The position numbers are program-made. From Escherichia coli (GTDB lineage: Bacteria > Pseudomonadota > Gammaproteobacteria > Enterobacterales > Enterobacteriaceae): 64,000 bases of DNA. Positions 39,001 to 42,000 of the stretch are shown piece after piece. Every line of letters begins with the position of its first letter. Positions within the stretch are counted from its first letter, which is position 1. The DNA is taken from NCBI RefSeq assembly GCF_009931435.1, contig NZ_CP043414.1. One strand, written 5' to 3'.

Positions 39001-42000
39001 TATGTTCCTGGACTATTTTGCACTGGGAGTGCTTATTTTTGTATTTCTGGTGATATTCTATGGGATTATTATTTTACATGATATTCCCTACCTGATTGCT
39101 AAAAAACGTAATCATCCTCATGCCGACGCCATTCATGTTGCTGGTTGGGTGAGTCTTTTTACGCTGCATGTTATCTGGCCATTTTTGTGGATTTGGGCCA
39201 CGCTTTACCGCCCGGAGCGGGGATGGGGAATGCAAAACCATGACTCCTCCGTTGTGCAACTACAACAGCGTATTGCCGGGCTGGAGAAACAGCTCGCCGA
39301 CATCAAATCCTCTTCTGCCGAGTAATACTTATGGATTTACTGATTATTTTGACCTATGTGGCTTTCGCATGGGCAATGTTTAAGATCTTCAAAATTCCTG
39401 TAAATAAATGGACCATTCCCACCGCGGCCCTGGGTGGCATATTTATTGTCAGCGGTCTAATTCTGTTAATGAACTATAACCATCCGTATACCTTTAAAGC
39501 GCAAAAAGCGGTTATTTCTATTCCTGTTGTCCCGCAGGTGACAGGCGTGGTGATCGAAGTGACGGACAAGAAAAATACGCTGATTAAAAAAGGTGAGGTG
39601 CTATTTCGACTGGACCCGACGCGTTATCAGGCGCGGGTGGATCGGCTGATGGCGGATATCGTTACCGCAGAACATAAACAGCGGGCGTTGGGCGCAGAGT
39701 TAGATGAGATGGCGGCGAATACTCAGCAGGCAAAGGCCACGCGGGATAAATTCGCTAAAGAGTACCAGCGTTACGCACGCGGCAGCCAGGCGAAAGTAAA
39801 CCCGTTTTCAGAACGCGATATTGATGTGGCGCGGCAAAATTATCTGGCGCAGGAAGCCTCCGTAAAGTCATCGGCGGCGGAACAAAAACAGATCCAGAGC
39901 CAGCTGGATAGCCTGGTGTTGGGTGAACATTCTCAAATCGCCAGCCTGAAAGCGCAGCTCGCGGAAGCAAAATATAACCTTGAGCAGACGATAGTGCGTG
40001 CGCCGAGCGATGGTTATGTGACCCAAGTGCTGATTCGTCCGGGTACCTATGCCGCATCGCTGCCGCTACGTCCTGTGATGGTGTTTATACCCGATCAGAA
40101 ACGACAAATTGTGGCGCAGTTCCGTCAGAACTCCTTGCTGCGACTGGCTCCCGGCGATGATGCGGAAGTGGTGTTTAATGCTCTGCCAGGTAAGGTATTC
40201 AGCGGTAAGCTGGCAGCCATTAGTCCAGCTGTTCCCGGCGGAGCTTATCAGTCGACCGGCACCTTACAGACGTTAAACACAGCATCGGGTTCAGATGGCG
40301 TTATCGCGACCATTGAACTGGATGAGCACACTGAGTTGAGCGCTTTACCAGACGGTATTTACGCCCAGGTGGCGGTTTACTCTGATCATTTCAGCCATGT
40401 CTCGGTGATGCGCAAAGTGCTGTTACGCATGACCAGTTGGGTGCATTACCTTTATCTCGATCATTAATCTTCGCTTTCCGCCGCTTGTTCAGGCCGCAGT
40501 TGCTGCGACTGAGCAAGCTGGTGGCGAATTTCACGCAGCATTTCATCCAGCACATACTGGACCCGCCAGGGCTGGTATTCCCGTTTACGGAAGATAGCCA
40601 CCAGATCCAGCCACCATTCATACGGTTGCTGAAAGCAGGGCACCAGCGTGCCGTCTTGCAGGTCGCTCTGCACACTTTTGTCTGGCGCAAACACAATCCC
40701 CAGGTGATTTCGTGCCAGCTCCAGCGCCGATTGCGTGTTGTCGCAAACGTAATTTCCCTTCACGCGATAATCCCGCACCTCTTTACTCCCGGCGACGTTG
40801 AAGCGCCAGATATTCGCGTCGTCGATCATCATCGAGTCGATCAAAATACAGGAGTGATGTTCGAGTTCGTCAGGACGGCTAATGGGATGTTTCGCAAGAT
40901 AGCGCTGACTGGCATAAGCGGTTACGGCATATTGCGTAATAAAACTGGCAACCAGCGATTCATCTTTTGGTGGAGCATAGCTGATTAAAACATCACAATC
41001 ATCGGGAAATTCGACACCTTCATAAAAGGCATTACGCTCAAGATTGCAGGTTTTTAGCGATAAGGTGATATCACCGATATCTTTAATTTTATCGATAACA
41101 TGTTTGGATAAATAGGTAATTATGCCGGTTGGGGCGTAGATGGTGACCCGACCACGTTTCTCATGCTTATAATCTGCAATAAAATTATTAAGTTGCTCGT
41201 TTCTGTCCAGCATGTCGTTGATGTACGGTAACAGCGCGGTACCAAAAGGTGTGAGCATCAGCTGCCGGGTGGTTCGGTCAAAGACTTTTAAACCTACTTT
41301 TGATTCAAAATCAGCAAGATATTTGCTGACGTTGGCCTGTGCGAATCCAAGTACAGTCGCGGCATGGCTGATATTTTCACTGGCAGCGATTACCGAGATA
41401 ATTTTTAACTCCCGGTACTTAAGTTGTAATTTTGTCATCGCAACAGCCCAATTATATATAATTTTATATATTACTATATAAATATGAATCTTGCACCGGA
41501 GAAATTGTAAGCATTATTATGCCGACTCTTTTTTATCTTATTTTAAAATGGAATACCGGACATGTTAATTAACCGCAATATTGTGGCGTTATTTACGTTG
41601 CCTTTTATGGCAAGCGCAACTGCTTCTGAATTATCCATTGGTGCTGGTGCAGCTTATAATGAATCGCCTTATCGTGGTTATAATGAAAATACAAAGGCAA
41701 TTCCGCTGATTAGTTATGAAGGTGATTCATTTTATGTTCGTCAGACCACGTTAGGTTTTATTCTGTCGCAAAGTGAAAAAAATGAACTTAGCCTGACCGC
41801 ATCCTGGATGCCGCTGGAATTTGACCCTGCAGATAATGACGATCATGCCATGCAACAGCTTGATAAGCGTGATAGTACGGCTATGGCGGGGGTTGCCTGG
41901 TATCACCACGAGCGTTGGGGAACCGTGAAAGCCTCTGCGGCTGCGGACGTTCTGGATAACAGCAACGGCTGGGTGGGGGAGCTATCGGTATTTCACAAAA

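Follow-up and report, generated by a model that had tools for sequence, protein, structure and literature searches.

The yibI-yibH and yiaW-yiaV gene pairs of Escherichia coli: two old paralogous copies of a DUF3302-periplasmic adaptor module and candidate parts of a TolC-coupled envelope conduit

The closest described relatives of the proteins considered here are EmrA, the periplasmic adaptor of EmrAB-TolC (TCDB 8.A.1), and the adaptors of the AaeX-AaeA-AaeB and YdhI-YdhJ-YdhK systems. EmrA combines an inner-membrane anchor of one transmembrane helix with a lipoyl domain, a long alpha-hairpin and a beta-barrel, and it is not a lipoprotein. In the other two systems, whose pumps are of the FUSC/ArAE type, a gene for a small two-helix membrane protein is followed by the gene for an adaptor of the same broad branch. 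An outer-membrane channel encoded elsewhere is normal in E. coli, where tolC is unlinked to the AcrAB, EmrAB and MacAB systems that depend on it, and only a missing inner-membrane pump is unusual. We analysed a stretch of 64,000 nucleotides (nt) of E. coli (NZ_CP043414.1; the window, to which all coordinates refer unless a locus is named) that carries two gene pairs, yibI-yibH and yiaW-yiaV, each encoding a DUF3302 protein and an adaptor. They are the same genes as the y-genes of these names in K-12 (RefSeq/EcoCyc), without structural difference, and neither the genes nor their paralogy is new, as both are already annotated. YibH and YiaV are among the few periplasmic adaptors of E. coli without an assigned pump or substrate and belong to the 'y-ome'; the literature on DUF3302, YibH and YiaV holds scattered mentions in omics and evolution studies and no functional study. 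We consider it probable that each pair supplies the inner-membrane and periplasmic parts of an envelope conduit coupled to an outer-membrane factor (OMF) such as TolC.

From the profile searches, we observed that both adaptors match CusB_dom_1 (53-57 bits), HlyD_D23 (42-45 bits) and HlyD_3 of Pfam, all above the cut-offs, and that in NCBIfam they come closest to EmrA/EmrK, MdtN, RND_mfp and AaeA. The nearest solved sequence relative found with phmmer in the PDB was EmrA (E = 6e-12). An AlphaFold2 model was made from YiaW and YiaV joined by a linker, using a paired alignment of 32 DUF3302 and adaptor sequences. In this model, YiaV begins with a hairpin of two transmembrane helices and ends with a further helix; between them are a lipoyl domain, whose two halves are separated by a long alpha-hairpin, and a beta-barrel. 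The two helices of the alpha-hairpin, of 56 and 58 residues (~97-152 and 161-218), have a predicted local distance difference test score (pLDDT) of mostly 80-94, and the model superposes on EmrA. Foldseek placed EmrA of the EmrAB-TolC cryo-EM structures (8zal/8zar) at the top (E = 8e-20; target-normalised TM-score 0.64-0.67), followed by MacA, AcrA and MexA. We concluded that YibH and YiaV are periplasmic adaptors of the EmrA/AaeA type. They share with EmrA the inner-membrane anchor, the three periplasmic elements described above and the absence of lipoprotein character. They differ from it in having two N-terminal transmembrane helices and an extra conserved C-terminal helix, in always following a DUF3302 gene and in the lack of an adjoining MFS pump gene; the identity to EmrA is ~20% only.

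Three features of the adaptors are kept in relatives down to ~45% identity, namely the N-terminal two-helix hairpin (M[DE]LL..Y....FK.FK.P.NKW..T..LGG), the tip of the periplasmic hairpin (VNPFSExDID) and the C-terminal helix (..MRK[VI]LLRM.SW.NY). The same three are also the most conserved between YibH and YiaV, whose last 38 residues differ at one position.

The partner proteins, YibI and YiaW, match the DUF3302 profile over positions 1-76/77 with scores (Table 1) far beyond the cut-off of 32 bits, and carry the invariant residues of the family (L8, P29, P39, A43, W49, S51, W59, P60 and W65). In DUF3302, two hydrophobic helices flank an invariant His/Asp/Pro-rich loop (HDIPY.IAK.RNHPH.DAIH), and the coiled-coil tail is variable; in the AlphaFold2 model, YiaW forms a hairpin of two long helices with a C-terminal helix. 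The family is of modest size (883 clusters at 50% identity), and a profile search of the PDB for solved relatives gave chance-level matches only (E of at least 0.05). These pairs resemble aaeX-aaeA and ydhI-ydhJ in gene order, whereas their small protein is of the DUF3302 and not the AaeX family, with no other Pfam match. The distribution of charges suggests that the DUF3302 protein and the adaptor would both be inserted with the N-terminus outside and the loop between the helices in the cytoplasm.

Next, we surveyed the genomic context of the module by clustering the open reading frames (ORFs) around 76 genome and 84 metagenome loci (160). The DUF3302 gene precedes the adaptor gene by <80 nt in 107 complete pairs; the two genes form an autonomous and conserved module and are constantly paired across Proteobacteria. 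In Enterobacteriaceae this module occupies two conserved contexts, one between mtlA and yibF-selAB and the other between aldB and yiaU-yiaT. Its surroundings are variable in Serratia, Rahnella, Buttiauxella, Pantoea, Budvicia, Aeromonas and Ferrimonas. No conserved ABC, RND or FUSC pump stands beside the pair in the genome or metagenome loci, a FUSC-type pump gene adjoining it in none of them, and the neighbours that do occur belong to various families (MFS, SulP, Amt, AAE, one MMPL, and an Na/H exchanger in six loci). At nine distant environmental loci, the pair shares an operon with a TolC-like OEP gene (PF02321, 124 bits), the gaps being 2-18 nt. The order is DUF3302-adaptor-OEP in seven of them (survey loci L089, L100, L104, L110, L118, L135 and L139) and OEP-DUF3302-adaptor in the other two (L084 and L085). 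These OMF-linked operons give a testable lead for an adaptor module that has no pump.

Some of the environmental loci showed further arrangements. Three of the operons are continued by an Na+/H+ exchanger gene to give a four-gene order DUF3302-adaptor-OEP-exchanger (L089, 4618-8582; L104, 1414-5371; L135, 3863-7810; last gap 11-36 nt), and a cation/proton antiporter within an operon of the tripartite type is unusual. Beside its DUF3302 system, L089 also carries at 3-2358 a second trio of genes, for an OEP, an AaeX-like protein of 77 residues with two transmembrane helices, and a 290-residue AaeA-like adaptor; no pump gene is visible there on the contig, which ends at the OEP gene.

We then asked how the two pairs of the window are related. 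The preliminary description of this DNA had presented them as collinear paralogues with recognisable nucleotide similarity, in the same orientation and about 20 kb apart. The ORFs agree with this picture, all four genes being on the + strand with 20,075 bp between the starts of yibI and yiaW, and pairwise alignment confirmed that the pairs are homologous along their entire length. YibH and YiaV are identical at 289 of 378 residues (76.5%) without a gap. YibI and YiaW share 70% identity overall and ~92% across the first 80 residues, which make up the DUF3302 domain, and their C-terminal tails differ. With blastn, the pairs match each other in three segments of 73-79% identity (E from 1e-66 to 9e-28), and a global nucleotide alignment gave ~70% identity. 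The similarity begins 12 nt before the first ATG and ends with the adaptor stop codon; blastn found no match between the flanks of the two pairs. Third codon positions are 44% identical, the nonsynonymous distance (dN) is 0.17-0.18, the synonymous distance (dS) is saturated (NG86 cannot compute it; LWL85 gives ~2) and omega is ~0.09. Both copies are old and under strong purifying selection.

In a neighbour-joining tree, the YiaV clade falls outside a clade that unites the YibH orthologues with the copies of Serratia, Pantoea, Buttiauxella, Rahnella and Budvicia. The identity of E. coli YibH to these copies is 81.0% (range 78.8-82.3%), as compared with its 76.5% to YiaV (bootstrap 0.994). Both pairs are also found in Citrobacter and Pseudocitrobacter, 9-15 kb apart and in the two contexts that they have in E. 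coli, and therefore the copies have coexisted since before the split of Escherichia and Citrobacter. A recent local duplication was rejected on the grounds of the synonymous saturation, the closer relationship of YibH to the Yersiniaceae/Erwiniaceae copies than to YiaV, and the presence of both copies in Citrobacter. The yiaWV pair is the older, diverged copy; the core copy, yibIH, keeps its synteny with mtlA and yibF throughout Enterobacteriaceae. A third DUF3302-adaptor pair, followed on the same strand by a LysR-family gene, was seen elsewhere on the chromosome of Citrobacter sp. MGH106 (L061).

The preliminary description had also noted that no pump or outer-membrane channel gene adjoins either pair, and this held for both pairs of the window: the ORFs and the annotation of the closest genome place neither a transporter gene nor a TolC-like gene next to them. 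It had passed over the genes behind yiaV, namely yiaU for a LysR regulator and yiaT for a MipA/OmpV outer-membrane protein. The module being autonomous, ancient and under strong purifying selection, and standing in operons with TolC-like genes elsewhere, the question shifts from a neighbouring pump to the DUF3302 protein as the inner-membrane partner and TolC as the exit duct. The pairs are two ancient paralogous copies of a self-contained module made of a two-helix DUF3302 protein and an EmrA/AaeA-type adaptor. We propose that in E. coli the two proteins assemble in the inner membrane and that the hairpin of the adaptor reaches a duct in the outer membrane that is encoded elsewhere, most likely TolC. 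Such an assembly might then export a substrate or bridge the envelope in another way, its energy coupling coming either from the bundled transmembrane helices of both proteins or from an unlinked transporter.

A number of observations weigh against such a duct-coupled conduit. AcrA and MacA use an RLS motif (R-x3-L-x6-S) at the tip of the hairpin to dock to TolC, and a regular expression allowing [LIVM] and [ST] did not find this motif in YiaV or YibH. The scores stay under the NCBIfam subfamily cut-offs, with 108-112 bits vs 390.8 for EmrA/EmrK (TIGR00998; 112 bits at best), 107-112 vs 376 for MdtN and 63-71 vs 400 for AaeA; with RND_mfp they were 94.5 and 87.9 against a cut-off of 94.9. The AlphaFold2 model reached moderate scores (pLDDT 76; predicted template modelling score 0.52), and the membrane topology was taken from charge counts only. 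The OMF linkage is confined to distant relatives with shorter adaptors (~315-320 residues, ~45% identity), and none of the Enterobacterales loci has an OMF gene adjoining the pair. From the literature, no experiment ties either pair to TolC or to a substrate, YiaV is listed as TCDB 8.A.1.1.4, 'uncharacterized' (PMC10971958), and yibH serves as a neutral integration site (PMC5852967).

We monitored the distribution of the two copies in 5426 complete E. coli genomes. The yibIH pair is core (5406/5426 genomes, 5383 of them with at least 80% coverage). The yiaWV pair was found at 95% identity or more in 3796 genomes (~70%), the sole match elsewhere being a 74% cross-match to yibH, and yiaU-yiaT in 3783, which is essentially the same count. 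Hence, yiaW, yiaV, yiaU and yiaT are present or absent together as an accessory four-gene block. The actual presence/absence polymorphism of this region is the yiaW-yiaT block and what lies beyond it, missing in ~30% of the genomes, while the segment between the pairs stays. In Nissle 1917, araD/sgbE directly follows aldB, and the alignment shows that window positions 38503-46886 are absent and that the 24-nt aldB terminator hairpin is kept. This interval of 8.4 kb holds the genes for a small membrane ORF, yiaW, yiaV, yiaU, yiaT, a GH127 glycoside hydrolase, an MFS transporter and an AraC regulator. Because Citrobacter has the same order, aldB-yiaW-yiaV-yiaU-yiaT, at the same place, the block is ancestral to Escherichia and Citrobacter and was lost from ~30% of E. 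coli; Pseudocitrobacter also has the four-gene arrangement. The split between a core yibIH and an accessory yiaWVUT, the latter absent from B2 strains such as Nissle, offers natural single-copy backgrounds for phenotyping.

Other explanations of the pairs have to be set against the conduit. If the DUF3302 protein and the two-helix adaptor were by themselves the complete inner-membrane part, working without a canonical ABC, RND, MFS or FUSC pump, then E. coli would hold two copies of a new class of tripartite system. This pump-free form of the conduit is suggested by the three-gene DUF3302-adaptor-OEP operons, and we regard it as rather unlikely. It is doubtful, though conceivable, that the pairs serve instead as adaptor and accessory module of a conventional pump encoded elsewhere, the DUF3302 protein being an accessory like AaeX or AcrZ; candidates would presumably be the orphan ArAE/FUSC-type proteins YccS and YhfK. 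Such a role would fit with MdtN and AaeA, which are adaptors of FUSC-type pumps, among the best family matches, with the succession of a small two-helix membrane protein and an adaptor that mirrors aaeX-aaeA, and with the second trio beside the DUF3302 system of L089. The secondary transporters near some loci (the six with an Na/H exchanger, as well as MFS, SulP and one MMPL) point the same way. However, no pump family is consistently linked across the ~160 loci, and the three-gene units of L100, L110, L118 and L139 have no immediately adjoining transporter, the MMPL gene of L110 lying ~0.5 kb upstream. We find it improbable that the pairs export nothing and form an envelope-architecture or stress module, in which the adaptor-like protein would tether the inner membrane to the peptidoglycan or the outer membrane and yiaWV would act with YiaT under YiaU/LpsR. 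The co-inheritance of yiaW, yiaV, yiaU and yiaT and their synteny in Citrobacter agree with this role, and yiaT may be functionally linked to yiaWVU. In Serratia liquefaciens (L079), genes for MipA, LysR (- strand) and a DUF3313 lipoprotein precede and adjoin the pair, in an arrangement that differs from yiaWVUT. YiaU/LpsR represses yiaT and activates the waa genes of the lipopolysaccharide core (PMC9068703), and PMC12844161 cites a report that deletion of yiaW raises the efficiency of Ca2+-mediated transformation, an altered competence that would suit an envelope function. Against this, yibIH has no such neighbours, the OEP linkage of the distant relatives points to a duct-coupled system, and the co-inheritance of neighbours can reflect one deletion event.

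A different kind of explanation, put forward in the preliminary description, treats the pairs as direct repeats through which homologous recombination could delete or duplicate the 20-kb segment between them. They do bracket the Rhs-sel-aldB segment as described, with yibF-selAB-yiaY-aldB and the Rhs element lying in between. Their common orientation, their collinearity over ~1.5 kb and the presence of an Rhs element, of a class known as rearrangement hot spots (PMC2935791), would favour this idea. Nevertheless, we judge it highly improbable. The pairs share no exact match longer than 20 bp, and the two that rank next measure 17 bp each. In E. coli, recombination by RecA/RecBCD has a minimal processing segment of ~23-27 bp, which is more than the pairs offer, and their divergence of ~25-30% invokes the mismatch-repair barrier. 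A comparative search for strains lacking the intervening segment found the yibF-aldB core in 5425 of the 5426 genomes, in at most two places per genome; in 73 genomes, of which not all were examined, nor was the one genome without the core, less than 80% of the core is covered in one place. The two truncated cases that we examined were deletions mediated by insertion sequence (IS) elements: in one genome yibI is cut back to its first 90 nt, with an IS5-like element at the break, and in the other yiaW is cut back to its first 57 nt, with IS1 at the break. The copies have, moreover, coexisted since before the Escherichia-Citrobacter split. Paralogue-mediated deletion was rejected on the basis of the 20-bp longest match, the near-universal core segment and the IS elements at the inspected breaks. 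Neither copy is a substrate for homologous recombination with the other, and for genome evolution the result is a negative one: the pairs do not destabilise the Rhs-sel-aldB segment.

Table 1. The genes of the two pairs and the two genes that follow yiaV in the window.
Gene	Position	Strand	Product	Basis
yibI	18927-19289	+	120 aa; DUF3302; two predicted transmembrane helices, conserved His/Asp-rich loop, variable coiled-coil tail	ORF, Pfam PF11742 140 bits, closest-genome annotation
yibH	19292-20428	+	378 aa; EmrA/AaeA-like periplasmic adaptor (membrane fusion protein)	ORF, Pfam, NCBIfam
yiaW	39002-39325	+	107 aa; DUF3302; yibI paralogue	ORF, Pfam PF11742 147 bits
yiaV	39331-40467	+	378 aa; EmrA/AaeA-like periplasmic adaptor; yibH paralogue	ORF, Pfam, NCBIfam, AlphaFold2, Foldseek
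yiaU (LpsR)	40464-41438	-	LysR-type regulator, convergent with yiaV	ORF, closest-genome annotation
yiaT	41562-42302	+	MipA/OmpV-family outer-membrane protein	Pfam MipA 179.5 bits

The genes of the pairs and of their surroundings in the window are collected in Table 1. The spacer within both pairs is 2-5 nt, with 2 nt from the yibI stop to the yibH start. The closest annotated genome (strain 2020CK-00188; 99.1% identity across 22.4 kb, most other E. coli having 94-96%) carries the names yibI, yibH, yiaW and yiaV, and the ORF lists agree with it; both pairs are 95-99% identical to the other E. coli copies, with identical annotation. The gene order is mtlA (- strand), yibI-yibH, an ISAs1 scrap, Rhs orphan toxin/immunity modules, a full rhs, yibF, selA, selB, yiaY and aldB, followed by hicA, hicB, a small membrane ORF (- strand), yiaW-yiaV, yiaU (- strand) and yiaT. 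Relative to the K-12 genes, this strain has hicAB and the small membrane ORF as extra genes in the aldB-yiaW interval, and its yiaT is followed by a GH127-MFS-AraC cluster. In K-12, sgbE directly follows yiaT, as deduced from a deletion listed in the DGF-298 paper, and K-12 thus appears to lack that cluster. A promoter scan around yiaWV found promoter-like sites no commoner than in shuffled sequence. Terminator-like sites numbered 11 vs 3.4 expected, and only the aldB terminator hairpin was informative.

Directly 3' of yibH, the region ~20531-30400 contains the ISAs1 transposase scrap, the Rhs orphan modules (Imm57 and Tlde1, the sel1-repeat yibG, the HEAT-repeat yibA and a fragment of polymorphic toxin type 34) and then the full rhs, annotated as rhsC. 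In B2 strains, this place is free of an Rhs element and yibH directly adjoins yibF.

The published hints on the individual genes are the following. In the uropathogenic strain UTI89, yibI is induced in urine, and a yibI mutant adhered less and reached a competitive index of 0.33 (PMC5404293). Of six populations evolved with macrophages, three acquired IS1 at nt 263 of yiaW, and insertions in the pot operon came afterwards (PMC3861542, PMC5495878). A natural genome, that of strain E70, has IS1 inside yiaW. The same position, nt 263 of 324, was the one hit in parallel in the evolved lines, and yiaW looks like a target of IS1. The 3' ends of yiaV and yiaU, which are convergent, overlap by 4 nt (40464-40467). 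The yiaU-yiaV pair is among the candidates for 'excludon' overlapping transcripts (PMC12288877), which suggests mutual transcriptional interference.

We also considered whether the pair is a defence system or a phage gene. Matches of the pair genes in PADLOC had E values of at least 0.005 only, those in PHROGs were confined to adaptor-like families of unknown function, and the phage collection held just two close copies, 76.7% identical to YiaV, in unannotated 'Campylobacter phage' records. This candidate was rejected, as the PADLOC and PHROGs searches gave nothing meaningful and the copy in a Yersinia prophage is not general. In that case (L006 and L007, 4307-14868), the pair and a YdgH/BhsA-like gene lie in a prophage, between integrase/excisionase and recT, which is a typical position of a moron, an accessory cargo gene.

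Finally, upstream of yiaW, the toxin-antitoxin pair hicA/hicB (37896-38508) is inserted between the aldB stop (~37617) and the aldB terminator hairpin (38481-38503); in Nissle 1917, this hairpin of 24 nt comes immediately behind aldB. The small membrane ORF at 38505-38888 (- strand) is divergent from yiaW; it encodes 127 residues from the first possible start, is annotated with 104 residues and has no match in Pfam. Citrobacter amalonaticus has this ORF, too, upstream of yiaW (L005, 6168-6482).

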